DNA from: Vairimorpha necatrix
Taxonomy: Eukaryota
Direction of reading: 5' to 3'
Length of the DNA: 64,000 nucleotides
NCBI GenBank assembly: GCA_036630325.1
Contig: CP142728.1
Span: 806,001-870,000, forward strand
Within the stretch, counting starts at the first letter, position 1, and the number at the start of each line of letters is the position of its first letter. Under the pieces are notes generated by a model. The model was not told where the DNA came from and did no database searches. It saw only the letters and a list, made by a program, of their open reading frames with translations. Positions 30,353-53,136 of the stretch are shown in pieces. A program made the position numbers and the translations under genes.

Positions 30353-30405
<53 letters not shown>

Positions 30406-30504
30406 TTAATTGGTGACGCGCATGAATGGAGCAACGAGATTCCTACTGTCCCTACTTACAATTTTGTGAAACCACGAGACAAGGGAACGGGCTTGTTATT
30501 TATC

Positions 30505-30536
<32 letters not shown>

Positions 30537-30971
30537 TTAGTATGTTTTAATAAATATTCGGTATATTGTAGAGAGGTGGGAGAAGTATTGTGAAACCACT
30601 AGTATGTTTGAATATTTATTTATTAGAATATATGGGGAGTTTGGCTGGGGCGGTACAGCTGTTAAAAAGTAACACAGCTGTCCTAAGGTAGATGAATGAT
30701 GGATGGTAACCATCAGTTTATTATAAGGGAATAAATCTGCTTTACTTTATGCATATGACTGTATTTAGTAGGGAAACCTTGGCCTAGCGATCCCAATTAC
30801 ATTCATTATGTATTGGGTGATTGAAAAGTTACCACAGGGATAACTGGCTTGTAGCAGGCAAGCGATCATAGCGACTCTGCTTTTTGATTCTTCGATGTCG
30901 TCTCTTCTGATCATCGTAGTGTATATGTTACGAAGTGTTGGATTGTTCACCCGGTAATGAGGAACGTGAGA

Positions 30972-31013
<42 letters not shown>

Positions 31014-31245
31014 TAAGTATTTTTGAGTGAACTTTGATAGTACGAGAGGAACTCTAAGTGATGACCACTGGTAGTGCGATTAACTATTAAGTTATGTTGC
31101 TTAGCTACGTCGTTTCGATTAAGGCTGAAGGCCTCTTAAGCCTGAAGCGTAGCTCAAAGATACATTTAGGAGAATACTACTCTTTTAAGCAGAACTGTAA
31201 GAATGAAGGTGTATGCCGACATTTTGAGGTTACTGCTTTTTTTGT
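28752..31245 (+). rRNA. Large-subunit rRNA with fused 5.8S
   Basis: ACGATGAAG 5.8S motif, GAACTTAAGCATATC, ACCCGTCTTGAAACACGGACC, TTAAGGTAGCCAAATGCCTC, sarcin-ricin loop AGTACGAGAGGAAC. The 3' end is uncertain (31240-31300). Confidence 0.95.
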
Positions 31246-31300
31246 ATGTAAAGTAGGTGTTGTATACTATAAGAGAGCGTACTTTATGTCTAGATTTGGT

Positions 31301-31368
31301 ACCCTTACAAGAGAGAGTCTACGTCGCGGAGGGCGGGACCGATGTTTTTTAACTAGGTGCAGATCTCT
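31301..31368 (+). ncRNA. HDV-like ribozyme, degenerate copy
   Basis: Homolog of 38377-38445 with changes in P1 (ACCCTT/GGAGGGC), P3 (GAG/CGC) and L3 (TCTACGT). Confidence 0.7.
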
Positions 31369-31374
31369 ACCAAA

Positions 31375-34271
31375 ATGAAGGGTAAAGTAAGAGAAAGCAG
31401 GAGCGAGCTCAGTAGAGCAAAAAGTGACCACTTTGGTGGTCCAAACAACGATTTAGATACAGAAATGTATTTAAAACAACAAACTAAGCATGTATATGCT
31501 AGTAAAAGTTTCCCAAGTGTTACTTTCAAAAATGATGGAGAAATGGGCGCAACGGTCAGAACCCGGACTTTCCATAATATTTTACGTACTGAATCCGGGT
31601 ACTGACCGTAAAGTGGGGAAATGTTTTTTACGAACCATATCCCCAAGAGTCGAAATTTTACAGATTTGTTTAAATTTCATTCGCATTAACATTTCTTGAG
31701 TTATAAACATTTTTGTTTTTTAGATGATTTTTTCAAAAATATTTTACCCTTATGGTATGTATGGAGCCGCTTGACAGTAGGTCGAAAATATTCCAAGACC
31801 CACATGAGGAAATATGTTGGTTAGTGGATGAAAATCTACTAAAAACAACAATGGAATGTACGAAATGTCCTGGTATAATGATATTAACACCGGACGATTC
31901 GTACATGAACTGCCACCGGTTTAAGTGTAGGGGGAAGACTGGATGTGGAACATCAATCGGAGTTTTTGATAAAACTTCATTTTCTAATCCCCGAATACCT
32001 ATACATAATTATTTGTATATTCTGTATTCGTTCACTGAAAAGCAGTCTACACTAAACCTAAACAAAAATTCCCGGGTGTCTGCTTCCAGTGTCTTCAGGG
32101 CTAAAAAAAAATATACGAAGCACTGAAAAAAGAAAATCTCAAACACCAAAAAAAAAATTGGAGGATTTGAAGAAGTGACACAGCCGATGAAACGGTTATA
32201 GTAAAGGGGAAGTTTGTCAAAGCTCCAACGGAAAGATATGACACAGTCAAAAACTGTGTGTGGTTGGTAGGGACGATAGACGAGCGAACGTTAGAACTGA
32301 GAATCGAAATAGTACCTAACCGGACTATACAGACGATGACTCGGTTTTTTGTAAAGTATATAAAAAACGACACTACATGCATAACTGATGGTCATAAATC
32401 TTATCCCGCTGCAGTAGAATCTATCAACGGTGATCATCGCGTTGTAATTCATGATGAAGGCTTTAAAACAAAGCAGTAGAGACCACAAACTTAATAGAAG
32501 GTGTTTGGTCACATCTTAAATGTGATATAATAGCTAGAAAAGGGATCAAAGAAAGTGCTATCCCTGATTTTTTGGAAGAATTTAAGTGGAGAAGAAGATG
32601 TGCAATTTATAAAAACATCAAAAGTTCAAGAGAGTTCTTCATTGAAATTATCAAAGTTTTCTTAGAATAAAATGGTTTTTTATTATTATTATTTTTTTTC
32701 GTTTCTCTCCAAGGGGGGACCCTTAGAGAGAAAAAAAGTCCGGGTTCTGACCGATGCGCCGAGAAATGAAATATTTTCTCAAGAAAATCAAAATTCTTTC
32801 AGAAAGAATTAATAAAAATGATATTTTGGACACATCAAAAAAAGATAACAATAAAGATCTTATTGATCTTAAAAGATACATATCTAGCACTACTGAATTA
32901 GTATTGATTCAGCAGACATATTTGGAGCTCTTCCATGACAAGCTAGAAAGACAAAACATCAAACTAAAAAATTTGATTAAAAATAATGTGATGGATGACA
33001 GTGATCAAATTACTGAATCATCAAAAAACAAATTTGAGATAATGATTGAGAATCACTCAAAAGAATGTGTAGAACAAAAGGATTATAACTCCGATGTTCC
33101 AAATGATACCAGTAGCGAAACCCTTCAGTTAGCTACTGGAAACAATGATATTTCTAAATTAGAAATCATAAATGAAGATGTTTTAATTAATGTCAAAAAT
33201 ATCGTGTCTGCTGTCAAAGTAGAAGAAGAAGATCGATTGTCAGAAGATGGCAAAAGAAAATGTATAGGTGTCTCAAATGCGTCTACAAATACTATAATTA
33301 ATAAAAATATTAAAACAAAAGATGTTAAGCTAGACTTAGCTTCCATTAATAAAAAAGCAGTAGTTAGACATCTGTCAACTATCTCTGCTATTATAGCTGG
33401 TAAAAGAAAAGCTCCTAAGAATGGAGTAAAACTTTACCATACAAATGAAGACGGATGGACATCTGTCAAACACACATTCAAGCCTAAAGTCCAGATAGAC
33501 TTGAAGAAAAACAGAAGTGGCAAAACCACGCATAAATCCAACTTTATTAGATTTAAATCACTTAAAGTAGAATCCGGTGGCAATGTAAAAGTGCCCAAAA
33601 ATTCTATTCATGCAGCTTTACATGAGAAAAACAAAATATCTACTAAAGACTATAAAAAAGAAAGATTACAAAATCATAAAATAAATTTTACTCAAAAAAT
33701 GAAGAATAGAAAAAATGAGAAATGTCAACAAAAAAGAAGTTCAGTTTTACCAAAGAAAAACTGGGCCAAAGAGCTATCAGACGAAGCTCTTATGAAAATT
33801 ATAAAGGATGGTAGAATTATTTCCAATTGTAAGTTTAGGATAGCTCTTGTGTCTGGACTCGGATTGAAAGGGAAACCTCAATCTAGAGACGCTTGGGCAG
33901 CCTTAGCTGATGTGGAAAATAAAGATATACCACTTATAAAACAATTTAAAGATTCGGAAGTAGTACTTCTGATGATTAGAGAACACGTGTGCCAAAAGGT
34001 ACTAAGCAAGATTAAAGAAAAGTTCGGAGGTTCTAATATCTGCGATGAAGTTAATTTCTTTATCGACTTTTTGTCTTTAACAAAAACAACTGTTCTAGGA
34101 GAGCTGCAAAGACTCTCTGGAACGCATAAAAATTTTGTACCGCTTGTAAAAGCATGTTGGTACATAACTAAAGAATTAAATAAAGAAAAGCCAAACCATG
34201 GTTCTTTCATTTATTTAGAAAATATGATGGGTGAGCCTGCCCGAGAATCTAAGGACTTTAACAATGAATAA
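31375..34271 (+). pseudogene. LINE ORF1 (basic, coiled-coil-like), split by a Merlin insertion at 31546-32760
   Basis: MKGKVRES...KNDGEM joins KYFLKKIK... once the transposon and one TSD are removed; matches the uninterrupted start of copy 2 at 39333. Confidence 0.9.
31546..32760 (+). mobile_element. Merlin (IS1595/ISXO2-like) DNA transposon, frameshifted transposase about 31752-32670
   Basis: 26-bp TIR GGCGCA(A/T)CGGTCAGAACCCGGACTTT; 8-bp TSD GAGAAATG (31538-31545, 32761-32768); ADET, WLVGTIDE, ITDGHKSY and IEGVWS motifs. Confidence 0.93.
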
Positions 34272-37200
34272 AGTATCTTTGTTAAAGTCCTGTTATTATA
34301 GGAAATTATTTTCCTATAACAAGAGTGATATTTTCAAATCTCTAAATAAAAAAACGCATAATCCAATTGGATTTACTCAGATTAAAAATACTTTCCAAAC
34401 GACAACGAGATTGAAAAGTCTCAAGTATTTTTTCATTAGAAAGAATATGTGGTGGAAGAAAGTACAAGAACAATATTGTATTGTCAAGATACAAAGAATT
34501 CCTTATGGAGTGAAAGATCTCCTCAAAGACTTATGTAAGAAGAACTCTTTTTTGGAGAATTCCATTATTACAGCAAGAAAATATAGACGAAGGGACACGT
34601 CATTCACAAAAATAATAGTTGAAAAACTACATGCAAAGTTATTGATTAAGACAGTTAAAGCTAAAGGCTTTAAAGTTTTAAATGATAATAGAAAAGAACT
34701 AGAGAAATCTAGTAAAGTAAATAAAAAGACCAAAGAGAACATAAAACTCTTAAGTCTAAACATTAACCATCTCTCTAATAAGAGATTAGAACTTGAGTTT
34801 CTTCTTAAGAAGGAGAAACCAGAAATTATGTGCTTACAGGAAACTTGGAGACAATCTACAAGACCTTTAAAACTTGAAAAATACACTACAGTTGAAACAC
34901 CTAGTGGTGGAAAAAATAAACCAGGATTAATAACTCTGGTTAGAAATAATGGAGCGATCAGATGTTCCAAAAAAGGAACCGACTCAAACATTCTGCAAAC
35001 TGTAGTTGAGTTTAGTTCAGCAGGCAAATGGATTAAGTATTTAGTCTTAAATGTCTACATACCACAAAACAAGGATCTCAAAAGGGAGACCTTGGCCAGA
35101 TTATTTTCTCTTTTAGAAAAAGAGAATTTCAGAAATAACTATAGTGAGATCATAGTGATGGGAGATATGAATATGCAGAGTTCTAGTCTCAAGAAAAAAT
35201 TAAGTGTAGTTGGTTTGCCAGTTACAATTAAATATAACAGCAAAGATGGTACAAGGATTCTCAAAGATGGTAAAAGATCTAAGAGGAAAATTGATACCAT
35301 CTTTCGACTAAAAAGTAATGATAATGAGAAGATCATTATATCCAAGTCTTGGGTATTAAGTGATCACTTAGTGCTCAAAAGAAAAATTAAACTTGCCGTT
35401 GATAAGATCTCAGATCAACTAGTTTATGATAAGAAAATGCTGGAAAATCCAAAAGTGATTAAAAAGCTTAAAAAGAAGTTGTGTAATCAACAATTAAACA
35501 TGAATAATCTTCCTGAGATTATTCAAAAAGTTTGTACATCTTTGAAGATTTACAAAAAGAGAAGATTCCATACTGGACTTACAATGAGATGGAGATATTT
35601 AAAAGTCTTCAAAGAAAAACGTCTAGCAGCAAGAGCTGTTATGAAAAATTACAATGAAATCAACTCAATTAGATTCGAATATCTCAAAAAGAGAGTAGAC
35701 GAAACTAAAAAGTTGATTCGCAAAGATAGATCGAAACTTTGGGCTTTAAGAGGAATAAGGTTCTTTAAAAGTAATAGATCCCGAGAATTCTGGCAATGGC
35801 TGAAAAATAGAAGTGTCTCCATTCGTTTGGATCAAGTGGCTCTAATTGACCACAATAAGATTCTTCAGACTTGCCGAGCAAAGAAGCTAGAAATAGCGAA
35901 TAAATTTTACGCTGATTTGGCGTCAGAGAATGATATAGATGTCAATGTCTATGATAAAGTAGATCTTGTTGATCTTCCCCCAGAGATAACAGATGAAGAA
36001 TTTTTATCCGCACTGAAGAAATGTGGAAATAACAAAGCAGCCGGTCCTGATGAGATTCCAACCGAGCTATACAAATACTTACTGACTAGAGCAGTAAAAG
36101 ATAAATTCTTTAAATTCATGCTACATGAATTTAATAAATATATTTGTGGAAATAGTCCTCCTGAATACTGGAGCATGGCAAACATGATTTGCCTCCACAA
36201 AAAAGGAGATGAGACAGATCTGAATAATTATAGGGGAATCTCTTTAATTAACACAATTAGTAAGATCTATCTCAAGATAATAAATGACAGGTTAACTCAA
36301 TTTGTCGAAGAACAAGATATACTCTCTAGATACCAAGCAGGATTCCGAGCAGGTGAAGAGTGTATGAATCAGATTACATCTCTACTAGAAATAGTGAGAA
36401 GAAGAGAATTCAGAGGCCTGAACACAATAATGTGTTTCATTGACTTTGAAAAAGCTTATGATAATGTAAGTCATGACTTATTATTTGAGAAGCTTACAAA
36501 ACTTAATATCCCATTGTATTTAATCAATACAATAAAGGATATTTATAAATATACCACCATGCGTGTGAAAATTGGCGGTGACACGTCAAGTGGTTATAAC
36601 TACAGAAAAGGAGTGAGACAAGGGTGCCCTTGTTCTCCAATGCTATTCAATATATTCATCAATGATATTTTTGACGGCATAGAAGGAGTTTTGATCCCAA
36701 GGTCAAATACGAGAGTTCCGGGACTGATGTTCGCAGATGATATTGTTGTCTTCGGAAACAACATTGATGATCTTAATAATAAGATCAATAGAATTTCTAA
36801 TTGGGCAGTTAATAACAGAATGAAGATTAACTGCTCAAAAAGCGGAGTATTAGAATGGGCTGCTCATTCTAACATACAAGAATTCCGAAGTTTGTATTCT
36901 CTCAGTACAGACTTTGGTGTGATTGAGGAAGTCACTGAATACAGATATCTAGGTGTCTTAACTAAAAGAAACACGCTAGAAGAACACTTGGTCAAAGACG
37001 CAGCAATGCGTGGCAAGAAAGCCTTGGACGCCTTGATGCCCAAGTTGATGAATGGCAGCATCAATCTCTACTTCAAGGCGATCTTAATAAAATGTGTACT
37101 AGTACCCACACTAATGTATGGCAGTGAATTGTGGGGAATGTCAAGTACAAGAGCAGGTAAGATTAACAGGATCTTAAGAAAATCTATCAGAATGATATTC

Positions 37201-37956
37201 AAAAGAGTATTAGTTCCACTAGATAGAGTAATGGACGAGTTCAGTATCGAACGAATTCATATACAAGCAGCTCTAAGTAGATTTAGAGCATACAACAAGT
37301 GGAAACACAATAAGACAATCATATCGGATATAATCTCAATCAATCCGAAAGAAAGAAAAACTACCTGGTGTTCAAGAACACAAAGATGGTTAAAACGATT
37401 TGTCGGCAACGATTATGAATCAAGTGATAGTAGATTTATCACTACAAAAATAATTGATGTACTAAGAAGTCGAAGAACTCTAAATACTTCTTTAGCTGCA
37501 TCAATAGCAAATCAATATGACATAAGAAATTCACAAATAAAATATGTCATGAACAAAATAAATAATAGAAAAATTAGAACATATACTAGATTGAGATGTA
37601 ATCTAGTAAAGTGGTCCTCAGCAATAGCATATTCAAAAAGAATACCAATGAGTTATAGAAACAAATGCTTTTTGTGTGATGGACCACAAGAAAATTTAGA
37701 ACACTTTCTGCTGGAGTGCGTCTGTTTAACTGACATTAGATCATCTTTTGAAAATAAACTGCCTCTACTGACTTGTTCAAAAACAAATAACCAAGAAAAA
37801 ACCAAATTACTTCTTGGTAATAAAATCGGATTAAGAAACAACCCAGAAAAGATAAAAGAACTTTGTTGGACTATAGAGTTCTTAGATAGAATGGTTGTCT
37901 CTAGAAGAATTATATTTGAAAAGAAACTTAAGGAGATAACGAAACAAGGTAATTAA
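34264..37956 (+). CDS. LINE ORF2: AP endonuclease + reverse transcriptase + CCHC zinc finger (intact, about 1230 aa)
   Basis: SLNINHL, CLQET, VMGDMN, IDTIF, SDH; KAAGPDEI, FIDFEKAYD, QGCPCSP, FADD, YRYLG; CFLCDGPQENLEHFLLEC. ATG at 34264 overlaps the ORF1 end (ATGAATAA). Confidence 0.96.
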   Translation: MNKVSLLKSCYYRKLFSYNKSDIFKSLNKKTHNPIGFTQIKNTFQTTTRLKSLKYFFIRKNMWWKKVQEQYCIVKIQRIPYGVKDLLKDLCKKNSFLENSIITARKYRRRDTSFTKIIVEKLHAKLLIKTVKAKGFKVLNDNRKELEKSSKVNKKTKENIKLLSLNINHLSNKRLELEFLLKKEKPEIMCLQETWRQSTRPLKLEKYTTVETPSGGKNKPGLITLVRNNGAIRCSKKGTDSNILQTVVEFSSAGKWIKYLVLNVYIPQNKDLKRETLARLFSLLEKENFRNNYSEIIVMGDMNMQSSSLKKKLSVVGLPVTIKYNSKDGTRILKDGKRSKRKIDTIFRLKSNDNEKIIISKSWVLSDHLVLKRKIKLAVDKISDQLVYDKKMLENPKVIKKLKKKLCNQQLNMNNLPEIIQKVCTSLKIYKKRRFHTGLTMRWRYLKVFKEKRLAARAVMKNYNEINSIRFEYLKKRVDETKKLIRKDRSKLWALRGIRFFKSNRSREFWQWLKNRSVSIRLDQVALIDHNKILQTCRAKKLEIANKFYADLASENDIDVNVYDKVDLVDLPPEITDEEFLSALKKCGNNKAAGPDEIPTELYKYLLTRAVKDKFFKFMLHEFNKYICGNSPPEYWSMANMICLHKKGDETDLNNYRGISLINTISKIYLKIINDRLTQFVEEQDILSRYQAGFRAGEECMNQITSLLEIVRRREFRGLNTIMCFIDFEKAYDNVSHDLLFEKLTKLNIPLYLINTIKDIYKYTTMRVKIGGDTSSGYNYRKGVRQGCPCSPMLFNIFINDIFDGIEGVLIPRSNTRVPGLMFADDIVVFGNNIDDLNNKINRISNWAVNNRMKINCSKSGVLEWAAHSNIQEFRSLYSLSTDFGVIEEVTEYRYLGVLTKRNTLEEHLVKDAAMRGKKALDALMPKLMNGSINLYFKAILIKCVLVPTLMYGSELWGMSSTRAGKINRILRKSIRMIFKRVLVPLDRVMDEFSIERIHIQAALSRFRAYNKWKHNKTIISDIISINPKERKTTWCSRTQRWLKRFVGNDYESSDSRFITTKIIDVLRSRRTLNTSLAASIANQYDIRNSQIKYVMNKINNRKIRTYTRLRCNLVKWSSAIAYSKRIPMSYRNKCFLCDGPQENLEHFLLECVCLTDIRSSFENKLPLLTCSKTNNQEKTKLLLGNKIGLRNNPEKIKELCWTIEFLDRMVVSRRIIFEKKLKEITKQGN

Positions 37957-38376
37957 TATGAATAATTAAAAAAATGAAGATCTAGAAATAGAAGAAAGAG
38001 ACGTTGATTTATTAACAAGAAGACTTATATTTAATTATATTTGACCTGGGAGAGGTCGGGCATGATACTGATGCTGTATTGTTCCGCTGAACTGAGTCGT
38101 GTTCTTAAATGGTGTATTGAGCCAGGCGTTTTCGTTTTTCATTAGACCCATGAAAGTGGGTCTCTAGTCATATTATGACTAAGGATGTGTCCTATGGGAA
38201 CAAACTTTTCTCCTACAAGCGAGGCCGTTAAGGTATGCTGGCGTGTAAGCGCACTTATTGATGATTTTTTCTTTATTAGTGGAGTTTTTGGTGCTTTGGA
38301 GGCTTTTCTTCGTTTTGCTGATTCTGTCTTTTTTTACAATAAACAATTTTAATTTTTTTTTTAGGTGCAGATCTCT

Positions 38377-38445
38377 ACCCTCCACAAGAGAGCGTCCACG
38401 TCGCGGAGGGTGGGACCGATGTTTTTTAACTAGGTGCAGATCTCT
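38377..38445 (+). ncRNA. HDV-like self-cleaving ribozyme (intact nested double-pseudoknot fold)
   Basis: P1 ACCCTCC/GGAGGGT, P2 AGAGA/TCTCT, P3 GCG/CGC, L3 TCCACGT, P1.1 CC/GG, P4 ACC...GGT, J4/2 GCAGA with the putative catalytic C at 38437. Confidence 0.88.
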
Positions 38446-38872
38446 AAGTCTTACCAACCTTCGGCTGCTGGTTGGTAAGTAGGGTCAGCTATACTCTAGG
38501 GGTGGGAGACCCATTGCTGGTGAGAAGAACGCCGTTAACTTTCGAGTAATTCTTCATATTTTTAACCTGGGAGAGGTTGGGCATGATACTGAAGCTGTAT
38601 TGTTCCGCTGAACTGAGTCGTGTTCTTAAATGGTGTATTGAACCAGGCGTTGTGTTTTCGTCAGGTCCGCGAAATATGTAGTCAGAGATGACTAAGGATC
38701 TGTTACCTACGGGAACAAATTTTTCTCCTACAAGCGAGGCCGTTGAGGTATGCTGGCGTGTAATCGCAATTATTGATGTTTTTCTGGTTGGTGGAGTTTT
38801 TGGTGGCTTGGTGGCTTTTCTTCGTTTTGCTGATTCTTTCTTTTTTACAATAAACAATTTTATTTTTTTTTT
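38446..38872 (+). mobile_element. Non-autonomous SINE/SIDE-like unit 1 sharing the LINE 3' tail
   Basis: About 120-nt head, then ACCTGGGAGAGG...ACAATAAACAATTTT(T)n homologous to LINE 3' UTR 38044-38362; 441-bp periodicity with unit 2. Confidence 0.85.
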
Positions 38873-39315
38873 AGGTGCAGATCTCTAAGTCTTACCAACC
38901 TTCGGCTGCTGGTTGGTAAGTAGGGTCAGCTATACTCTAGGGGTGGGAGACCCATTGCTGGTGAGAAGGACACCGTTAACTTTCGAGTAATTCTTCATAT
39001 TTTTAACCTGGGAGAGGTTGGGCATGATACTGAAGCTGTATTGTTCCGCTGAACTGAGTCGTGTTCTTAAATGGTGTATTGAACCAGGCGTTGTGTTTTC
39101 GTCAGGTCCGCGAAATATGTAGTCAGAGATGACTAAGGATCTGTACCTACGGGAACAAATTTTTCTCCTACAAGGGAGGCCGTTGAGGTATGCTGGCGTG
39201 TAAACGCAATTATTGATGTTTTTCTGGTTGGTGGAGTTTTTGGTGGCTTGGAGGCTTTTCTTCGTTTTGCTGATTCTGTCTTTTTTTACAATAAACAATT
39301 TTATTTTATTTTTTT
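38873..39315 (+). mobile_element. Non-autonomous SINE/SIDE-like unit 2
   Basis: Near-identical to unit 1; begins with AGGTGCAGATCTCT; followed by AGTCTTACCAAC. Confidence 0.85.
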
Positions 39316-42300
39316 AGTCTTACCAACACCCTATGAAGGGTAAAGCGCAACAAACCAGGAGCAAGCTCAGTAGAGCAAAAAGTGACCACTTTGGTGGTCC
39401 AAACAACAATTTAGATACAGAAATGTATTTAAAACAACAAACTAAGCATGTATATGCTAATAAAAGTTTCATAAGTGTTACTTTCAAAAATGATGGAGAA
39501 ATGAAATATTTTCTCAAGAAAATCAAAATTCTCTCAGAAAGAATTAATAAAAACGATATTTTCGACACGTCAAAAAAAGAAAATAACAAAGATCTTCTTG
39601 ATATTAAAAGATACATATCTAGCACTACTGAATTAGTATTGATTCAGCAGACATATTTGGAGCTCTTCCATGATAAGCTAGAAAAACAAAATATCAAATT
39701 AAAAAATTTGAAAAAAAATAATCTGATGGATGACAGTAATCAAATTACAGAATCAACAAAAAATAAAATTGAGATGATGATAGAGAATCACTCAAAAGAA
39801 TATGTAGAACAAAAGGATAATAACTCCGATGTTCCAAATGATACCAGTAGCGAAACCCTTCAGTTAGCTACTGGAAACAATGATATTTCTAAATTAGAAA
39901 TCATCAATGAAGATGTTTTAATTAATGTCAAAAATCTCCCATCTGCTGTCATAAATCTCGACACTGCTGTCAAAGTAGAAGAACAAGATAAATTGTCAGA
40001 AGATGGCAAAAGAAAATGTATAGATGTTTCAAAGGCATCTACAGATATTATAATTAATAAAAATATTAAACCAAAAGATGGTAAGCTAGATATAGCTTCC
40101 ATTAACAAAAAAGCAGTAGTTAGACATCTGTCAACTATCTCTGCTATTATAGCTGGTAAAAGAAAAGCTCCTAAGAATGGAGTCAAGCTTTTCCATATAA
40201 ACGAAGACGGATGGACATCTGTCAAACACACATTCAAGCCTAAAGTCCAGATAGACTTGAAGAAAAACAGAAGTGGTAAAACCACAGATAAAACCAACTT
40301 TAATAGATTTAAATCACTTAAAGTAGAAACTGGTGGCAATGTAAAAGTGCCTAAAAAGATTAATCATGAAGCTGTAAAGAGAAAAGATATCATTCATAAA
40401 AAAGATCATGAAAAAAGAAGATTACTAAATCAGAAAATAAATTTTACAAAAAAAAACGAAGGACAGAAAAAATGAGAAATGTCAACAAAAAAGAAGGCCA
40501 GTTTTACCAAAGAAAAACTGGGCCAAAGAGCTAACTGAAGAAGCTCTTATGAAAATTATAAAGGACGGTAGAATTATTTCCAAATGTAAGTTTAGGCTAG
40601 CTCTTGCTTCTGGACTCGGATTGAAAGGGAAACCTCAATCTAGAGACGCTTGGGCAGCCTTAGCTGATGTGGAAAATAAAGATATACCACTTATAAAACA
40701 ATTTAAAGACTCGGAAGTAGTACTTCTGATGATTAGAGAACACGTGTGCCAAAAGGTACTAAGCAAGATTAAAGAAAAGTTCGGAGGTTCTAATATCTGC
40801 GATGAAGTTAATTTCTTCATCGACTTTTTGTCTTTAACAAAAACAACTGTTCTAGGAGAGCTGCAAAGACTCTCTGGAACGCATAAAAATTTTGTACCGC
40901 TTGTAAAAGCATGTTGGTACATAACTAAAGAATTAAATAAAGAAAAGCCAAACCATGGTTCTTTCATTTATTTAGAAAATATGATGGGTGAGCCTGCCCG
41001 AGAATCTAAGGACTTTAACAATGAATAAAGTATCTTTGTTAAAGTCCTGTTATTATAGGAAATTATTTTCCTATAACAAGAGTGATATTTTCAAATCTCT
41101 AAATAAAAAAACGCATAATCCAATTGGATTTACTCAGATTAAAAATACTTTCCAAACGACAACGAGATTGAAAAGTCTCAAGTATTTTTTCATTAGAAAG
41201 AATATGTGGTGGAAGAAAGTACAAGAACAATATTGTATTGTCAAGATACAAAGAATTCCTTATGGAGTGAAAGATCTCCTCAAAGACTTATGTAAGAAGA
41301 ACTCTTTTTTGGAGAATTCCATTATTACAGCAAGAAAATATAGACGAAGGGACACGTCATTCACAAAAATAATAGTTGAAAAACTACATGCAAAGTTATT
41401 GATTAAGACAGTTAAAGCTAAAGGCTTTAAAGTTTTAAATGATAATAGAAAAGAACTAGAGAAATCTAGTAAAGTAAATAAAAAGACCAAAGAGAACATA
41501 AAACTCTTAAGTCTAAACATTAATCATCTCTCTAATAAGAGAGAAGAACTTGAGTTTCTTCTTAAGAAGGAGAAACCAGAAATTATGTGTTTACAAGAAA
41601 CTTGGAGACAATCTACAAGACCTTTGAAACTTGAAAAATACACTGCAGTTGAAACACCTAGTGGTGGAAAAAATAAACCAGGATTAATAACTCTGGTTAG
41701 AAATAATGGAGCGATCAGATGTTCCAAAAAAGGAACCGACTCAAACATTCTGCAAACTGTAGTTGAGTTTAGTTCCGCAGGCAAATGGATTAAGTATTTA
41801 GTCTTAAATGTCTACATACCACAAGACAAGGATCTCAAGAGGGAGACCTTGGCCAGATTACTTTCTCTTTTAGAAAAAGAGAATTTCAGAAATAACTATA
41901 GTGAGATCATAGTGATGGGAGATATGAATATGCAGAGTTCTAGTCTCAAGAAAAAATTAAATGTAGTTGGTTTGCCAGTTACAATAAAATATAACAGCAA
42001 CGATGGTACAAGGATTCTCAAAGATGGTAAAAGATCTAAGAGGAAAATTGATACCATCTTTCGACTAAAAAGTAATGATAATGAGAAGATCATTATATCC
42101 AAGTCTTGGGTATTAAGTGATCACTTAGTGCTCAAAAGAAATGTTAAACTTACTGTTGATAAGATCTCAGATCAACTAGTTTATGATAAGAAGATGCTGG
42201 AAAATCCAAAAGTGATTAAAAAGCTTAAAAAGAAGTTGAGTAATCAACAATTAAACATGAATAATCTTCCTGAGATTATTCAAAAAGTTTGTACATCTTT

Positions 42301-42898
42301 GAAGATTTACAAAAAGAGAAGAGTCCATACTGGTCTTACAATGAGATGGAGATATTTAAAAGTCTTCAAAGAAAAACGTCTAGCAGCAAGAACTGTTATG
42401 AAAAATTACAATGAAATCAACTCAATTATATTCGAATATCTCAAAAAGAGAGTTGACGAAACTAAAAAGTTGATTCGCAAAGATAGATCGAAACTTTGGG
42501 CTTTACGAGGAATAAAGCTCTTTAAAAGTAATAGATCCCGAGAATTCTGGCAATGGCTGAAAAATAGAAGTGTTTCCATTCGTTTGGATCAAGTGGCTCT
42601 AATTGACCACAATAAGCTTCTTCAGACTTGCCGAGCAAATAAGCTAGAAATAGCGAATAAATTTTACGCCGTATTAGCGTCAGAGAATGATATAGATGTC
42701 AATGCCTATGATAAAGTAGATCTTGTTGATCTTCCCCCAGAGATAAAAGATGAATAATTTTTATCCGCACTGAAGAAATGCGGAAATAACAAAGCAGCCG
42801 GTCCTGATGAGATTCCAACCGAGCTATACAAACACTTACTGACTAGAGCAGTAGAAGAAAAATTCTTTAAATTCATGCTACATGAATTTTTTAAATAT

Positions 42899-45800
42899 TG
42901 TGGTCTGTTGGTTTCCCAACAGACCGAGAAGAATGTTTTAAGCCATATTTTTTATTATCCTTCATACCCTTCTGGGCATGAATTTCTTTTATGTTTGTCG
43001 GAGGGAAAATATACAATATTTTCCCTCCAAAAACATAATTGGGAAGAGGAAGAGAATACTTATAGAATAGTATTCTCTGGTCTCCAGGGTAATCTTAGGA
43101 CCACTGGAGAACTGTTCCTTGACACTCCCCCCTTCTTTATTGGCTCCCATGTTTCCAGCTCAAAGTCCATCTTTTTTAAGTCTTTCCCATTTACCTTAAA
43201 CACGTCATTATTGGGATTTTTTATCTCGTATGCACCTTTCCTCCCGACTTTCGTTATAGCGTATGGGCCTTCAAATTTGCTGTCTAGTTTATTTCTAATG
43301 CTTATAGGTGGTTTTCTTCTTAATACCACATCACCTACTTGAAGTGCAAATTCTTTCCCCTCTACTATTTCCCTTTCTCTGGCCTCTCTTTCGGCTTGTA
43401 ACATAGTATCACGGGTTTGCTTCAATCTTTCAAATATTAAAAAATTATCTTCTAAACATAAGAGTTCTCTTTCGGGATGCTCCCATAATAAGGGTTTCCG
43501 TCCGTATAATAATTCAAAAGGAGAAAATCCTGTCTTCTTCCTCGGAGAAATTCTGTATGCGTACAGAGCCAGTTCAAAATCTTCATCCCAGTCTTTCCAC
43601 CTTCCATTTATCATTTTAGCCAGTTTTGCTACTAATGATTGGTTGGTTCTCTCTACCGTGCCATTGCATTGTGGGTGGTAAGCTGAAGTAAAAGATTTCT
43701 TTATTTTAAATATTCCACATAATTCCTTGACCGTGTTGTTCAAAAATTCAAGTCCTCTATCTGATAGTAATTCGTTGGGCGGACCATGTCTACATACTAT
43801 TTCTTCAAAAATAAATTTAGCTACCGTCTTAGCCGATTTATTTCTCACGGCTTTTGCTTCGCACCATCTTGTTAGATAATCCGTGGCAACTATTAAATAT
43901 GTTTTCCCATTTTCCGACTTAGGTAGAGGACCTACCATATCAATTCCTATCAGTGAAAATGGGTCCTTGAGTCGAATTCTATGATGTTGCTTTGGTGTTC
44001 TTTTTAAATTAAATTTTAGACACACCTGACATTTTTCGAGTTCCTGTTTAATATCTGCGTACATACCTTTCCATTTTGTTTTATCGAGAACTAAAGCATA
44101 TGTTGGATACATACTGCCATGTCCACACTCTTCGTGACATTTTAAAATCAGTTCTTTACGACTCTCGGCCGATAATTCTAGTTCATCTTCATAATTTACT
44201 ACATGAACAAATCTCGTTAGTCCGTCCGCTATAATGTTCTCTTTGCTTTTTATATATTCAATGTCATATGAGTAGTTTTAGAGTGTGAGAATCCATCTCA
44301 TTAATCTACCAGTGCTCTCTTTATAACTCAGCAGCCATTTGAGGGCGTGATGATCTGTTCGAATTGTAAAAGTATTTGTTAGGTAAATCCGGAACTGGGA
44401 TATGCTCCATATTATTGCCAAGCATTCCTTTTCGGTTACGGTGTAATTAATTTCAGCAGTATTTAATTTCCTTGAGATAAAATATACGGGCATTTCAGTC
44501 TTCTCGTATCTTTGCATCAGTGTTGCTCCTATGTAAAGGTTGGATGCATCTGTGTATAAGATAAATCTCTTATTGAAGTCCGGTAACTTGAGAACGGGAG
44601 AGCTCGTAATAATTTCTTTTATTTTCCCTACACTTTGTTTTGCTTCTTCAGAAAAATATAAATTTACCTTTCTTCAAGCAGTCATAGATAGGAGCCATTA
44701 TATCTGTATAATTCCTTATAAATTTTCTAAAATAGTTTATGAACCCAATAAAGGCTCTAGTTTCTTTAAGAGTGGCTGGGATTTTTAAATTAAGACATTT
44801 CGTCTGTTGCTCAAGTGGTATACTTACTCCATTCTTATTTATCGTATATCCCAAAAAATTCACCGTATTCTTTCCGATTTTACATTTTTTGTGATTAACT
44901 TTCAATTTCAATTTGTTTAAAATTTCAAAAACTGCTTCAATGTGCTTTACGTGCTCTTCAATCGATCTAGAGTATATCATAATGTCGTCTAGATATACTT
45001 GTACAAATTTATGTAGGTACGGAGACAGTATAGAATTCATTATCTTATGGAATGTAAAGGGTGCATTTACGAGTCCAAATGGCATCCTAACCCATTGAAA
45101 CGTTTTTGTCCTACTCCTAATAGCTGTAAGATATCTATCTTTTCCCGAATTCTTATTTGATGGTACCCAGATTCCAAGTCCAATACTGTAAATATAGATG
45201 CTCCTTGTAATTCTTCTATAGTTTCTTATACAAGTGGAATAGGATAGATCATCTTCTTTGTGATTTTATTCAACCTTCTAAAGTCTATGCAAAATCTAAT
45301 ATCACCATTAGGTTTCTTGACAAGAACCACCGGGGAAGTATAGTCTGATTCACTGTTCTCAATAAATCCTATACTCAAAAACTCTTGAATCTTACTTTCA
45401 ATAATCTCGTTTTGTTCTGGAGATCTTCTGTATTGAATATTTCTTACTTCCGAAAAGTCATTTGTTATTTCTATGGCGTGCTCAATATCTAAGCTTGATT
45501 TTAAATCATTATTGTGGAAAACAGCTGGATACTTTGAGATAAGTTTATTAAATTTTTCTTTGTCCTCCTGTGCCGTGTCTTCTTCTCCGACGTCTACAGT
45601 TTGAGTTTCGAGTACTTCGGGAGTTGTTGTGCAGACTGATTTTGTTATTAACGCATTTCTCATCTTATCAAGAATTTTGAGTAAGTTCAGATTTAGAACA
45701 TCTGAGAGGCCAATAATAAGGTCTTCTGGTAAGTTTTCTACTACATGTGCTTCTAATATTCTCGTTTTCTTAGTTTTAGGCTCTTTGACACTAAATTCCA

Positions 45801-46906
45801 CTATGCCTTCTGATTTCACTGTACCGCCCACTCCTACTATATTCAGGGTCTCTTTTCTTGGATTCAGACCCAATAGTTGGGCCTTCTTTTTATTAATGCA
45901 ATTAATTTCCGCTCCCGTGTCAATGAGCGCAGCAATCTTTTCTCTCCCTGAAAAAAAATTAATCCTTGCTCGGACATCCGATAAATTATCGTTTTTAGCC
46001 ACTCTACCTATCTTTAGGATTAATGAAGAATTTGTCTGTACTGCTTTCTTGGGGACAGTTTTATATTCTTTCATTTCTTGACAGGTTACTTTATTCTGTG
46101 GCTTTTTAAAAAAAGTTTTCCTTTTCTTTAGGTATTTATTTATTAAAAAATCCTTTTCTTCTACGAGTTCTAGTAACTCTATCCACTCTTTGGTTTCACT
46201 GATCGCCTCCTTTAATATCTCGGGGGAGTTTCTTCCAATCGCAATCTTAGATCTCTCAAAGTGCTCAATGCTTCCTTTAGCACACCTTTTTAGGTCATAA
46301 GCGTAACTCAAGATGTCGCTTTCCTTCGGACCCTCTACGTATAGGTGCATGAATAGATCTGTTACGTCTTCCACTAGTTTTTTTTTTTAGGTATTTTTTA
46401 TTAAAGTGGGATTTGAATGTCTCGTAATCTACAATCTCCTCGCCCTCAAAAGCTTTAAAACATTTCAACGCTTTGCCTTTTAGTTTTGACTTGGCAATAT
46501 CTAGCGTCTTCGCTTGAGAGTACACATCTTCAATTTCTCGAAATTGAGACAGAAAGTCTTCGGCTTTGTTCAGATCTTCGCCGGTAAATTCTAACCATCT
46601 GTTCTGAAGACATAGTTTTTTCATTTGAGAAAGGATGTTGTCGAGATCATCGCTCTTATCCTCATCATCGTTACCACCATTGTGGTCTGTTGGTTTCCCA
46701 ACAGACCGAGAAGAATGTTTTAAACCATATTTTTTATTATCCTTCATACCCTTCTGGGCATGAATTTCTTTTATGTTTGTCGGAGGGGAAATATACAATA
46801 TTTTCCCTCCAAAAACATTATTGGGAAAAGGAAGATAATACTTATAGAATAGTATTCTCTGGTCTCCAGGGTAATCTTAGGACCACTGGAGAACTGTTCC
46901 TTGACA
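42899..46906 (-). mobile_element. Ty3/gypsy retrotransposon, 226-bp LTRs, TSD AATAT, disrupted gag-pol
   Basis: LTRs 42899-43124 and 46681-46906 (TG...CA); AATAT at 42894-42898 and 46907-46911; PBS TGGTGGTAACG; PPT 43125-43138; IDTGA, YLDD and integrase motifs. Confidence 0.95.
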
Positions 46907-49089
46907 AATATATTTGTGGAAATAGTCCTCCTGAATACTGGAGCATGGCAAACATGATTTGCCTTCACAAAAAAGGAGATGAGACAGATCTGAATAATTA
47001 TAGGGGATCTCCTTAATTAACACAATTAGTAAGATCTATCTCAAGATAATTAACGACAGATTGACACAATTTGTTGAAGAAAATAACATCATCTCTAAAT
47101 ACCAAGCAGGATTAGAGAAGGCTAAGAATGTATGAACCAAATTACTATCCTACTTGAAGTAGTAAGAAGAAGAGAATTCAGAGGCGTGAACACAGTGATG
47201 TGTTTCATAGACTTTGAGAAAGCTTATGATGATGTAAGTCATGACTTATTATTTAGTAAGCTAGAAAATCTAGATATCCCCAGGTATTTGATAAATACAA
47301 TAAAGGATATCTATAAAAGCACCACCATGCGAATAAAAATCGTCGGGGAAACATCAAGTGGCTATAACTACAGAAAAGGGGCGAGGCAGGGGTGCCCCTG
47401 TTCTCCAATGCTGTTCAATATATTCATAAGCGATCTTTTGATGACATAGATGGTGTCTTGATTCAAAGATCAAATACAAGAGTTCCAGGACGGATGTTCA
47501 CCGATGATATCGTTGTCTTTGGAAACAACATTGATGATCTAGAAAATAAGATCAAAAGAATTTCGAAATGGGCAGTTGACAACAGAATGAAAATTAACTG
47601 CAAGAAGAGTGGAGTATTAGAATGGAATGTTAAATCTAATATTCAAGAAATTAGAAGTTTGTATTCCATCAATACAGACTTTGGCATGATTGAAGAAGTC
47701 ACAGAATATAGATATCTATGTGTTTTAATAAAGGAAACGCACTTGAAGAACATTTGGTCAGAGACGCGGCAATGCGTGGATCGAAACCCCTAGACGCCCT
47801 GATGCCTAAGTTGATGAATAATAGCATCAACCTCTATTTAAAGGCGATCTTAATAAAATGTTTACTAGTACCCACACTAATGTATGGTAGTGAATTGTGG
47901 GGAATGTCAAGTACAAGAGCAGGTAAGATTAACAGGATCTTAAGAAAATCAATGAGGATGATATTCAAACGAGTATTAGCTCCCCTAGATAGATTATTGG
48001 ACGAATTCAGTATCGAACGAATTCATATACAAGCAGCTTTAAGTAGATTTAGAGATACAACAAGTGGAAACACAATAAGACAATAATATCGGATATAATT
48101 GCAATCAAACCGAAAGAAAGAAAAACTACCTGATGTTAAAGAACACAAAGATGGTTAAAACGATTTGTCGGCAACGAATACGAATCAAGTGATAGTAGAT
48201 TTATCACTTCAAAAATAATTGATGTACTAAGAAGTCGAGAACTCTAAATACTTCCTTAGCTGCATCAATAGCAAATCAATATGACATAAGAAATTCACAA
48301 ATAAAATATGTCATGAACAAAATAAATAATAGAAAAATTAGAACATATACTAGATTGAGATGTAATCTAGTAAAGTGGTCCTCAGCAATAACCAATTCAA
48401 AAAGAATATCTATGAGTTATAGAAATAAATGCTTTTTGTGTGATGGACCACAAGAAAATTTAGAACACTTTCTGCTAGAGTGCGTCTGTTTAACTGACAT
48501 TAGAACATCTTTTGAAAATAAACTGCCTCTACTGACTTGTTCAAAAACAAATAACCAAGAAAAAACCAAATTACTTCTTGGTAATAAAATCGGATTAAGA
48601 AACAACCCAGATAAGATAAAAGAACTCTGTTGCATAAAAGACTACTTAGACAAGATGGTTGTCTCTGGAAGAATTATATTTAATAACAAACTTAAAGAGA
48701 TAACAAAACAAGATAATTAATATAGAATAATTAAAAAATGTAGATCTAGAAATAGAAGAAAGAGGCGTTGATTTATTAACAAGAAGACTTATACTTAATT
48801 ATATTTGACCTGGGAGAGGTCGGCCATGATACTGATGCTGTATTGTTCCGCTGAACTGAGTCGTGTTCTTAAATGGTGTATTGAGCCAGGCGTTTTCGTT
48901 TTTCATCAGACCCATGAAAGTGGGTCTCTAGTCATATTATGACTAAGGATGTATCCTATGGGGACAAACTTTTCTCCTACAAGCGAGGCAGTTAAGGTAT
49001 GCTGGCGTGTAAACGCGATTATTGATGTTTTTCTTATTGGTGGAGTTTTTGGTGGCTTAGTGGCTTTTCTTCGTTTTGCTGATTCTGTC

Positions 49090-52000
49090 TGTCACGGGAC
49101 AGCTCTCCAGTGGTCCTAAGCCTACCATGGAGGCCAGAGAATACTAGTATATAGAAAGTCTCCTCTTTATTTTAATCATGTTCTGGAGGGAAAATGTACC
49201 ACATTTTCCCGCCCATAAACATAAAAGAAAATCATCCCTAGAAGGGTATGAAGAAATCTAATAAACAGTTTAACAGTAAAGATTCTTCGAGGACTGTTGG
49301 ACATACAACAGTCCAAAATGGTGGTAACGGTAGCGGGGATGAGAACAACAGCTTTAATCAGTTGGCCTCACTTATGAGAAAGTTATGTCTGGGTAATAAA
49401 TGGCTTAAGTTTAATGGAGAAGATCCAAAACAAGCGGAAGAGTTTATTAACCAATTTAGAGAGATCGAAGACGTATATCCTCAAGATAAAACTTTAGACA
49501 TTGCCAAGTCTCAACTGAAAGGCAAAGCACTTATCTGGTTTAAAGCATATGAGGGGGGGGGAAATCACGGATTATAAGTCGTTCATTCGATACTTTAAAA
49601 AAAAAATATATGAAAGAGAAACTTACAGAAGACACAACCGACATGTTTATGCATCTCTATGTCGAAGGCCCAAAAGAAAACGATATTCTTAGTTACGCTT
49701 ATGTCCTGAAGACATGTTCAAAAAGAAACGAAGAGTACTTCTTGAGATCAAAGATAGCAATCGAGAAAAACTCCCCAGAAACGATAAAGGAGTCAATTGC
49801 AGATACAACAGACTGGATGGAGTTACTAGAACTCTTGGGAAAAAACAAAATATTATTAATTACTACTTAAAAAAGAAAAGAAATTGGTCGAGAATCCCAC
49901 GTAACGAAGCGCCCTTGCAGGAAAAGAAGTATACTAAAACTTATACGGAAAAATCAGTGAATCCTAAGACTGCATTACACCTGAAGGTAGGTAGAGTGGA
50001 GACCCCAAAACAAAAGATATTCGGCCAAGGATAAAACTCTTTTCAGAAAAATCAACCATTTCAGCGCCCATTGATACGGGAGCCCAGATTAATTTGATGA
50101 GTAAAGACACAGTCCAACTCTTAGGTCTAGACACAAAGAAAGGCATACTGAACATAGAAGGAGTAGGTGGGAGTGTTAAATCAAAAGAAATGGTAAAATT
50201 TATGGTCAAGAGATCTATAAACAAGAAAAACGACATGTTAAAAGCGTATGTTGTTGATAATTTACAAGAGGACCTTATTATCGGCATTGATGATGCAATT
50301 GCTTTGAATTTGTTAAAAATGCTTGACAAAATGGAAAACGCAGTGATAACGAAAACTATTCTCACAACAACTACAGAAGAGATTGGGACCTTTACACCAG
50401 ATATCGGAGATGAAACAATGCTTTCTGACGAAAAAGAAAAATTCAATAAATTGATTTTGAAGTACTCAGAAATTTTCCACAATAAAGACCCCCAATCAAG
50501 TTTAGACATTGAACACGCGATAGAATTAACAAGTGACGTCTCGGAAATTAAAAATATTCAATACAGAAGATCGCCTGAACAAAATAAGATCATAGAAGAT
50601 AAAGTTCAAGAATTTTTGAAGAAAGGATTTATTGAGAACAGTGATTCGGATTATACTTCCCCGGTCGTGTTGGTCAAGAAACCTGACGGTGATTTAAGAT
50701 TTTGTATTGACTATAGAAGACTCAATAAAATCACGAAAAAAATGATCTACCCAATCCCTCTCATATAAGAAACTATCGAAGAAATCCAAGGAGCTTCTAT
50801 ATTTACGGTATTAGACTTAGAATCAGGATATCACCAAATAAGAATTCGCCCCAAGGATAGATACCTAACGGACTTTAGGAGTAGATCGGGAACTTTTCAG
50901 TGGGTCAGGATGCCATTCGGGCTAGTAAATGCGGCCTTTACATTTCAAAAGATAATGAACTCAATAATATCTCCATACTTACACAAATTCGTACAAGTAT
51001 ATCTAGATGATTTAATGATATATTCAAAATCAATTAAAGAACATCTAAAACATTCAGAGGCAGTATTTAAAATATCAAATAAGTTGAAACTGAAAGTTAA
51101 TAAAAAAAATGTAGAATCGCTAAGAACTCAGTTAAATTTCTAGGGTATATGATAGATAAAGACGGGATTAGCATACCTTTAGAGCAGCAGACAAAATGTT
51201 TACAGTTAAAAACACCAACGACTCTCAAAGAAACTAGAGCCTTCATTGGCTTTACCAACTATTTTCGGAAATTTGTAAAAAACTATACAGATATCATGGC
51301 TCCAATTTATGAATGCTTAAAAAAGGGGAAATTTGAGTTCTCCGAAGATGCGAAAGAAAGTGTATCTAAGATAAAGCAAATTATCACGAGCTCGCCCGTT
51401 CTTAAATTACCAGATTTTAACAGAAGGTTTATATTATATACTGACGCATCTAATTTGTATATAGGAGCAACATTGATGCAGGATTACGAAGGAATTGAGA
51501 TGCCCGTTTATTTTATATCAAGAAAACTAAATACGGCAGAGATTAATTATACGGTTACTGAGAAGGAGTGTCTTGCCATAATATGGAGCATAACGCAATT
51601 CAGAATATACCTTACAAATACGTTTACGATCCGAACAGACCACCAAGCACTTAAATGGCTACTCGGTTTTAAAGAGAGCACAGGAAGGTTAATGAGGTGG
51701 ATCCTAACTTTGGAAAATTACTCATACGAAATTGAATATATTAAAGGAAAGGATAACGTTATTGCTGATGGATTGACCAGATTTGTACACACTGTAAACA
51801 AGAACAAGGTACCAGAAATACCCATAGAAAATCGGAAAGAGCTGATATTAAAATGTCACGAAGAATGTGGACATGGAAGTCTATTTCCAACATATACACT
51901 AATACTTAACGAAGCACAGTGGAAAGGGATGTACTCGGATATAAAGAGTGAAATAGAAAAATGCCATGTATGTTTGAAATTCAATCCCAAAAGATTACCT

Positions 52001-53097: not shown

Positions 53098-53136
53098 CTG
53101 TCTTTTTACAATAAACAATTTTAATTTTATTTTTTT

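Follow-up and report, generated by a model that had tools for sequence, protein, structure and literature searches.

Long interspersed nuclear elements (LINEs) with a 5′ hepatitis delta virus (HDV)-like ribozyme are already known, as are LINEs linked to ribosomal DNA (rDNA). R2, a retrotransposon without long terminal repeats (non-LTR), is linked to ribosomal RNA (rRNA) genes, lies on the rRNA strand, and has a 5′ HDV-like fold that would release it from a co-transcript (PMC3774820). Here we describe a locus of Vairimorpha necatrix that resembles R2 in these respects, analysed within one 64-kb stretch of DNA (contig CP142728.1, positions 806,001 to 870,000; hereafter the window). It holds a stack of LINE copies and short non-coding units, with a probable HDV-like ribozyme, beside the large subunit (LSU) rRNA gene. 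The best explanation, which we advance tentatively and at somewhat less than an even chance, is that the stack arose as one copy after another inserted, through target-primed reverse transcription, at the 5′ end of a resident copy.

Target-homologous RNA or cDNA ends have been proposed to give R2 its uniform junctions, and tandem duplications of them have been seen (PMC3774820). R2 differs from the present element in its restriction-like endonuclease, its single open reading frame (ORF) and its fixed site interrupting the 28S gene (PMC3774820), whereas the element here has an apurinic/apyrimidinic endonuclease (APE) domain and two ORFs, sits past the LSU gene, and shows as its junction repeat the end of its own candidate ribozyme. 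A LINE and a short partner sharing a 5′ HDV-like ribozyme segment are likewise found in Trypanosoma cruzi (L1Tc and NARTc), where the 77-nt L1Tc segment doubles as a promoter; the available text of that report describes neither self-targeting nor head-to-tail ribozyme stacking (PMC3383444). Perere-3 of Schistosoma mansoni is likewise an APE-type LINE with target site duplications (TSDs) directly at the ribozyme cleavage site, but its 5′ ribozyme is a twister variant and its TSDs vary by copy and are not site-specific (PMC8501958). Unlike in Perere-3, the bracketing sequence here is constant and equals the ribozyme's own 3′ end.

Zepp LINEs enter poly(A) tails, and telomeric elements attach to chromosome ends; unlike those of Zepp and HeT-A/TART, the joints described here coincide with a ribozyme end, lie next to an rRNA gene and involve T-rich tails. 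What is shared is accumulation of one family in a single orientation: Zepp clusters of Chlorella and Coccomyxa hold single-orientation LINEs in or next to older family copies (PMC3446292), and HeT-A and TART form telomeric head-to-tail arrays (PMC5537684). A full-text search combining microsporidia, non-LTR elements and HDV-like ribozymes found no paper. In the available text of a survey of microsporidian transposable elements, LINEs are mentioned and the terms ribozyme and rDNA are absent (PMC4202319), and a review table of transposable elements in rDNA lists only miniature inverted-repeat transposable elements for Microsporidia (PMC10946416).

A LINE and its short partner lie downstream of the LSU rRNA gene

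The rDNA unit within the window is of microsporidian type (Rfam). A LINE together with a short non-coding partner is parked downstream of its LSU rRNA gene, in the same orientation as the rRNA. The stack starts about 55 nt past the LSU end on that strand, so that co-transcription with the rRNA is possible. Its order, derived from self-comparison of the window plus direct reading of the sequence, is Rz-a, LINE1, 14-mer, Rz-b, unit 1, 14-mer+A, unit 2, 12-mer, LINE2 and C5, all on the + strand. Rz-a and Rz-b are two copies of the candidate ribozyme, the 14-mer is AGGTGCAGATCTCT and the 12-mer is AGTCTTACCAAC. Everything said below about junctions comes from this one locus. In a search of sequencing runs, 8 contained part of the sequence (best shares 0.64, 0.54 and 0.20), with no RNA run among those listed.

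27476..28722, + strand: small subunit rRNA gene, microsporidian type (Rfam RF02542, 1057 bits)
28837..31245, + strand: LSU rRNA gene, 3′ end near 31245 (Rfam RF02543)
31301..31369, + strand: Rz-a, apparently decayed copy of the candidate HDV-like ribozyme; its last 15 nt are 14-mer+A
31354..31371, + strand: left 18-nt repeat flanking LINE1, TAGGTGCAGATCTCTACC (direct reading, motif search, BLAST)
31372..38362, + strand: LINE1; ORF1 from 31375, ORF2 34231-37956, 3′ untranslated region (UTR) 38036-38361, T10 tail
38362..38379, + strand: right 18-nt repeat; includes the 14-mer at 38363-38376, between the LINE1 T-tail and the predicted cleavage site
38377..38446, + strand: Rz-b, candidate HDV-like ribozyme (double-pseudoknot fit), predicted to cleave 5′ of A38377
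38447..38872, + strand: unit 1, short non-coding element; head 38447-38556 opening with AGTCTTACCAAC, LINE-type 3′ UTR, T10
38873..38887, + strand: 14-mer+A between the unit 1 T-tail and unit 2, without the ribozyme 5′ part
38888..39315, + strand: unit 2, T7 tail
39316..39327, + strand: third AGTCTTACCAAC copy, directly after the unit 2 tail, read as LINE2's own leader
39328..53136, + strand: LINE2, degenerate; T-tail end at 53136
54169..54410, + strand: C5, 5′-truncated 3′ UTR of the unit subfamily; it abutted the LINE2 T-tail before a transposon landed there

By its sequence, LINE1 is an APE-type non-LTR retrotransposon. Its ORF2 is open over 1241 aa and matches reverse transcriptase (PF00078, 5.6e-39) and APE-type endonuclease (PF03372, 2.3e-05, at 24.7 bits against a cut-off of 24.5); relatives of ORF2 have both domains. 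The nearest are unnamed proteins at 60% identity, the closest protein with a name is from Nosema granulosis ('LINE-1 reverse transcriptase like protein', 48% identity), and a search of ORF2 against viral and prokaryote contigs returned no relatives. ORF1 is split by a nested DNA transposon (31546-32760), with both pieces open. The element is bracketed by a perfect 18-nt repeat and ends in a simple 3′ tail, a T-rich run rather than poly(A) when read on the sense strand.

The units each consist of a 110-nt head followed by a LINE-type 3′ UTR and T-tail of about 316 nt, with a period of 441 bp, and contain no + strand ORF of at least 100 aa. Their 3′ part is ~87% identical to the LINE1 UTR (substitution difference 9.3%), while an alignment of unit 1 with unit 2 contains 7 mismatches and 2 gap columns among its 427 columns (1.6% substitutions). 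Judged by this 3′ part, a LINE 3′ UTR plus tail, the units are a non-autonomous partner of the LINE, resembling a short interspersed nuclear element (SINE). LINE and units appear to share a 5′ HDV-like ribozyme and leader as well as a ~320-nt 3′ UTR ending in a T-run. A SINE head derived from tRNA, 5S or 7SL RNA with an RNA polymerase (Pol) III promoter was not found, and the unit contains many T4-T6 runs, which act as Pol III stops; the heads gave no Rfam match at E up to 10, and ARAGORN found no tRNA in the units. The conserved 3′ UTR pattern matched 0 loci in viral contigs (as a 26-mer) and 0 loci in prokaryote genome contigs. The head itself (38447-38556) has a higher GC content than the sequence around it, and its predicted fold is somewhat more stable than those of shuffled sequences (z -1.93).

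A candidate HDV-like ribozyme

The HDV-like fold consists of a 7-bp P1, a 3-bp P3 directly before the P1 3′ strand, a closing P2, and P4. A 2-bp P1.1 forms between L3 and the two bases after P1, the catalytic C lies in a C-N-R-A motif of J4/2 just before the P2 3′ strand, and P1 opens, at the cleavage site, with a G·U wobble. Rz-b can be laid into this nested double pseudoknot with all 20 of its 20 pairs Watson-Crick: a 7-bp P1 (ACCCTCC/GGAGGGT), P2 (AGAGA/TCTCT), a 3-bp P3 (GCG/CGC), a 2-bp P1.1 (CC/GG) and P4 (ACC/GGT), with L3 reading TCCACGT. The putative catalytic C is provided by J4/2, GCAGA at 38436-38440, just before TCTCT, and the predicted cleavage point falls between T38376 and A38377. 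The P1/P3 nest is also present in the minimum free energy structure (ViennaRNA), although folding of the entire stretch is no more stable than that of shuffled sequences (z -0.33). A loose HDV-like descriptor is unspecific: it scores 7 hits in the window, where shuffled sequences average 3.1. Under strict, post hoc criteria (GC-rich P1, GG in P1.1, GC-rich P3), Rz-b alone remains among the 7 hits, and 0 of 75 dinucleotide shuffles yield a match. We regard the HDV-like fold of Rz-b as probable on this modelling, and its self-cleaving activity as putative. In the fitted fold the 14-mer comprises the P4 3′ strand, J4/2 and the P2 3′ strand, which agrees with the original prediction, made from the sequence alone, that the junctions repeat the ribozyme's own 3′ end.

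The sequence of Rz-a departs from that of Rz-b at 6 positions, all in the first 35 nt, giving 3 broken pairs and 2 wobbles, a pattern that fits decay of one copy. The last 35 nt of the two copies are identical (31336-31369 and 38412-38446); the identical 3′ halves might reflect replacement when LINE1 joined, or gene conversion. A scan of metagenomes with the ribozyme core returned 1 locus, on a GC-rich contig and similar only in the 23-mer, which we took as a chance match; a scan of viral contigs with the 14-mer pattern returned 0 loci.

An Rfam alignment over the full window ran the LSU model through Rz-a to 31358 (RF02543, 231.6 bits), which would be expected if the supposed ribozyme were the LSU rRNA 3′ end and the repeats were pieces of the rDNA target site, as for R1/R2-type elements. 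When the stretch was cut at 31296, removing Rz-a, the model still reached its last position at 31245, and did so at 234 bits. Neither Rz-a alone nor Rz-b alone gives an LSU match at E up to 10, and the forced alignment contains several non-canonical pairs. We reject an LSU identity of this segment on the model end at 31245 and the missing LSU match, and consider it hardly credible.

Ribozyme-end and leader sequences directly follow three T-tails

The original prediction placed AGGTGCAGATCTCT and AGTCTTACCAAC at a series of junctions, and all of these copies were found where it had put them. The 14-mer occurs four times on the + strand (31355, 38363, 38432 and 38873), where 0.22 matches would be expected by chance even with 2 mismatches and 4 were reached in 0 of 100 shuffles; the 12-mer occurs three times (38447, 38888 and 39316), against 0.34 expected with 1 mismatch and 3 reached in 0 of 100 shuffles. 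Since both motifs are parts of repeated elements, copy number alone is unsurprising, and the informative part is their position directly after T-tails. The T-runs at 38353-38362, 38863-38872 and 39309-39315 directly precede a 14-mer, a 14-mer and the 12-mer, respectively. A 14-mer stands on either side of the unit headed by Rz-b (38377-38872), one reaching exactly to the predicted cleavage site on the left and the other starting exactly after the T-tail on the right. LINE1, too, is flanked on both sides as predicted, by perfect copies of the 18-mer at 31354-31371 and 38362-38379 (BLAST confirms 17 of the 18 nt).

The 12-mer had also been proposed to flank unit 2 in the manner of a TSD. Its positions are right, but the sequence is the units' own, one arm of a 10-bp hairpin present in both (CTTACCAACC/GGTTGGTAAG). 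Its CCAA core aligns with the LINE1 leader (TCTCTA-CCAAA-ATG against TCTCTA-AGTCTTA-CCAAC). The hairpin arm and this homology are why we read the third copy as LINE2's own leader, which would begin at the first nucleotide past the expected ribozyme end. If unit 2 entered the LINE2 leader, the 12-mer could have been a 12-nt homology or a TSD.

The same junctions can be read as joints of DNA duplication. A lone unit headed by a ribozyme and lying ahead of LINE2 would have been tandem-duplicated by slippage or unequal crossover at T-run+AG microhomologies, followed by a 69-nt ribozyme duplication and one ordinary LINE1 insertion. An exact 441-bp tandem does start about 10 nt before the 14-mer (38422-38872 against 38863-39313, 97.3% identity), and both the ribozyme P4 loop, GTTTTTTAACT, and the T-tail precede the 14-mer, providing short homology for misalignment. 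This accounts for the second 14-mer junction but not the first, and a separate event is needed to place a 14-mer directly before a ribozyme-cleaved 5′ end. The 18-nt repeat that brackets LINE1 from leader to T-tail is left unexplained, as are two other tails in the window that abut truncated copies. We therefore consider duplication unlikely.

In a repeat-dense region such as this, the 441-bp units and their junctions might also come from mis-joined reads of dispersed copies. The units, however, differ from each other by 1.6% and from the LINE1 UTR by 9.3%, Rz-a and Rz-b differ at 6 positions, and the junctions are internally consistent. Assemblies that collapse identical repeats or join them into chimeras would not show such differences, and we consider an assembly artefact highly improbable. 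Rolling-circle copying of a circular unit RNA was dropped on the ground that unit 2 lacks the ribozyme 5′ part.

The copy next to the rRNA gene is probably younger

Judging from their sequences, LINE2 is probably the older of the two LINEs and LINE1, which stands next to the rRNA gene, the younger. The ORFs of LINE1 are open, whereas LINE2 is frameshifted in ORF1 after 380 aa, has an ORF2 fragmented into at least 7 tblastn pieces, and carries two retrotransposons whose long terminal repeats (LTRs) have diverged, at 5 of 225 (2.2%) and 8 of 227 (3.5%) aligned bases. When random substitutions were simulated in LINE1 ORF2, the reading frame survived intact in 30 of 400 trials at a level of 1%, and in 2 of 400 at 2%. 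A decayed ribozyme 5′ part lies upstream of LINE1, whose ORF2 and both ORF1 pieces stay open. The apparent order of ages makes growth of the stack at its 5′ side probable and disfavours growth at the tail of the left copy. Identity between the two LINEs is uneven, at 95.2% over the 5′ 3.4 kb (32761-36141) and 90.2% over the 3′ 2.2 kb (36136-38329), which suggests mosaic ancestry or gene conversion between copies.

The difference in age also bears on serial template switching, or copying of read-through multimers, in which reverse transcriptase would have run from the 5′ end of one RNA, or from a stall at the 3′ edge of the ribozyme, onto the 3′ end of the next, so joining natural RNA ends head to tail in one integration or a few. 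All junctions join a complete 3′ end (T-tail, or the T-tail plus 14-mer expected after cleavage by a downstream ribozyme) to a defined 5′ end, namely the predicted cleavage site, the first nucleotide past the ribozyme or a 5′-truncated copy. R2 proteins jump from full-length cDNA to further RNAs in vitro and with engineered templates, and head-to-tail tandems, likewise without intervening target sequence, arise in cells (PMC11371274). Template jumping would give stack members of the same age, against which the comparison of LINE1 with LINE2 argues: with LINE1 younger, the whole stack is not the product of one event. Moreover, a cDNA of ~13 kb copied from five templates, including two complete LINEs, would be extreme. 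Template switching as the origin of the stack thus seems distinctly unlikely.

Copies of the same family abut most, but not all, T-tails

Seven T-tails of the LINE/unit family lie within the window, and they are followed by:

LINE1 tail: the 14-mer
Unit 1 tail: the 14-mer
Unit 2 tail: the 12-mer
LINE2 tail: 5′-truncated C5, after removal of a terminal inverted repeat (TIR) element and one TSD copy
C5 tail: unrelated sequence
Divergent tail ending at 56655: within 2 nt, a truncated tail copy of ~45 nt
Truncated tail copy ending at 56702: unrelated sequence

The last two belong to one feature outside the stack, and C5 is 90% identical to unit 1 and 81% to the LINE1 UTR (BLAST).

56493..56702, + strand: divergent 3′ UTR end (to 56655) plus a second truncated tail copy

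The 14-mer thus follows 2 of the 7 tails, or 3 of the 7 if the 12-mer is counted with it. The original prediction had a piece of the element's 5′ region after every poly(T) end; this holds for three tails (14-mer, 14-mer, 12-mer) and fails for the other 4 of the 7 in the window. Another copy of the same family abuts 5 of the 7. The window contains 59 T-runs and 65 A-runs of at least 7, of which the family tails make up 4; since only 4 such runs are tails and 5 of the 7 tails abut family copies, a general preference for T-runs cannot explain the stacking. Template switching may account for LINE2 plus C5 and for the pair near 56.5 kb. On the sense strand, the family 3′ ends (38334-38362 and the other tails) read AATAAA and then TTTTA(A)T(n). 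APE-type LINEs do not usually have a U-rich 3′ end, which would call for an A-rich primer strand.

The abutting copies suggest a further reading, in which newcomers, often 5′-truncated, enter the T-tail of a resident copy, its A-rich bottom strand priming on their U-rich RNA. The stack would then have grown at its 3′ side, and the 14-mer and 12-mer would be the 5′ ends of truncated newcomers. Same-orientation copies do abut 5 of the 7 tails, two of them being deep 5′ truncations, and the nested Zepp LINE clusters are a precedent for self-nesting (PMC3446292). Entry into tails, however, predicts that copies to the left are older, whereas the left LINE, LINE1, seems the younger of the two. It would also require a pair of truncations to stop on one and the same base, where the 14-mer begins, and the 14-mer upstream of an intact cleavage site would be unexplained. 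Family tails are, besides, only 4 of the 124 T- or A-runs of at least 7 in the window. We regard stacking directed by T-tails as quite improbable.

Proposed repeated insertion at the 5′ end of a resident copy

Taken as repeated target-primed reverse transcription into the 5′ end of a resident copy, the stack would have a history of four steps, which we propose tentatively. A resident copy composed of Rz-a, A, the 12-mer and LINE2 would have sat just past the LSU gene. Unit 2 would then have entered at the ribozyme/leader boundary. Next, a full-length, ribozyme-cleaved Rz-b plus unit 1 would have entered at the left edge of the 14-mer, leaving the 14-mer on both sides. Last, LINE1 would have inserted at this edge as well, giving rise to the 18-nt repeat. 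Each newcomer would thus be bracketed by a short sequence, and the oldest copy, LINE2, would end furthest from the rRNA gene. The bottom strand would have been nicked at the left boundary of the 14-mer, or else one nucleotide past the end of the ribozyme, and the top strand 12-18 nt downstream. Such a history would account for all 14-mer copies and for the decayed ribozyme 5′ part before the young LINE1, and would explain why the Rz-b unit spans from the cleavage site to the T-tail between two 14-mers. The original prediction had likewise proposed insertion at the ribozyme/leader of an existing copy; the boundaries and the age of LINE1 speak for it, whereas only 3 of the 7 tails conform and targeting is not strict, so that we retain it with reserve, as somewhat less than evenly probable.

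The bracketing repeat may be a TSD or may come from annealing of homologous RNA/cDNA ends. In Perere-3, TSDs directly beside the ribozyme cleavage site have been taken as the footprint of insertion of cleaved RNA (PMC8501958). The original prediction had suggested that a ribozyme-made RNA 3′ end (...UUU followed by the 14-mer) could anneal to the nicked target. This mechanism would be coherent, and resembles the proposal for R2 ends (PMC3774820). As an ordinary TSD of 14-18 bp would leave the same product, the two are indistinguishable here.

Several findings weigh against repeated insertion. The evidence comes from a single locus, and the age argument is based on 5 and 8 LTR mismatches plus one intact ORF. 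The four copies of the 14-mer are all identical, so that they cannot be dated. Read by its sequence, AGTCTTACCAAC is a shared leader, not a plain TSD, and its third copy needs no TSD. The units are an exact twofold 441-bp tandem of 14-mer, A, leader, head, UTR and T-tail, and DNA-level duplication could therefore make them without retrotransposition. Targeting is not strict, as both motifs are absent after the 4 of 7 tails that are followed by two truncated family 3′ UTRs and two unrelated sequences. For the ribozyme, the strict criteria were chosen after the candidate had been seen, and the first P1 pair, A38377-T38411, is a Watson-Crick A-U, not the usual G·U. No Rfam ribozyme family matched at E up to 10 in 38300-39400 or 31270-31400, with covariance models that cannot encode pseudoknots. 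None of the 6 differences between Rz-a and Rz-b, in a comparison of two copies only, is compensatory, and 5 weaken pairs of Rz-a.

A more far-reaching form of repeated insertion, which we find doubtful, is a self-homing pair of LINE and short partner with its own ribozyme as landing pad. Cleavage of read-through rRNA transcripts would yield RNA with the 5′ end ACCCUCC and the 3′ end ...UUU-AGGUGCAGAUCUCU, and when the next copy inserts, into the ribozyme of the copy closest to the rRNA gene, these termini would direct how both of its junctions form. The outcome would be a stack past the LSU gene, fed by Pol I and renewed at its 5′ end, with the rRNA never interrupted. If true, an element that reinserts at the end of its own ribozyme would represent a novel mode of target choice, in which specificity comes from the processed RNA ends of the element and not from host sequence, and in which the safe harbour is beside the rRNA gene rather than inside it. 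A ribozyme-bearing LINE with a short partner would also be added to Microsporidia. If the rival explanations are right, the locus is an ordinary repeat-rich region adjoining an rDNA unit. Telomere erosion was dropped as an origin of the stack, given that the rRNA gene lies on the would-be chromosome-end side and that two junctions fall on the same nucleotide.

Flanking motifs and nested elements

Upstream of Rz-a lies a partial match to the junction motif.

31285..31299, + strand: a*, the 15-mer TATGTCTAGATTTGG; 9 of its 15 positions equal T+AGGTGCAGATCTCT

As good a score was reached by 0.59% of 9141 15-mers sampled from the window, and a* could be an older, diverged junction motif or a look-alike site of the native spacer. 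When the 60 nt preceding Rz-a were locally aligned with the 3′ UTR end, the match was not significant (1728 of 2000 shuffles scored as high). The hexamer TAGATT occurs at 31291-31296, 4 nt before Rz-a, and at 54410-54415, directly after the C5 tail; the pair could be a 6-bp TSD of the first resident insertion (Rz-a to LINE2 plus C5), or, being so short, may be chance.

Four unrelated elements are nested in the two LINEs:

31546-32760: TIR DNA transposon splitting LINE1 ORF1, 8-bp TSD GAGAAATG
42899-46906: Gypsy-like LTR retrotransposon in LINE2, TSD AATAT
49090-53097: Gypsy-like LTR retrotransposon in LINE2, TSD CTGTC
53137..54159, no strand assigned: unrelated TIR DNA transposon in the LINE2 T-tail, 87-nt perfect inverted repeats, 8-bp TSD ATTTTTTT

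The 124-aa ORF of the transposon in LINE1 has no Pfam match. Both LTR retrotransposons are ~4 kb long, have LTRs of ~228 nt and 5-bp TSDs, encode protease, reverse transcriptase, RNase H and integrase, and lie on opposite coding strands.

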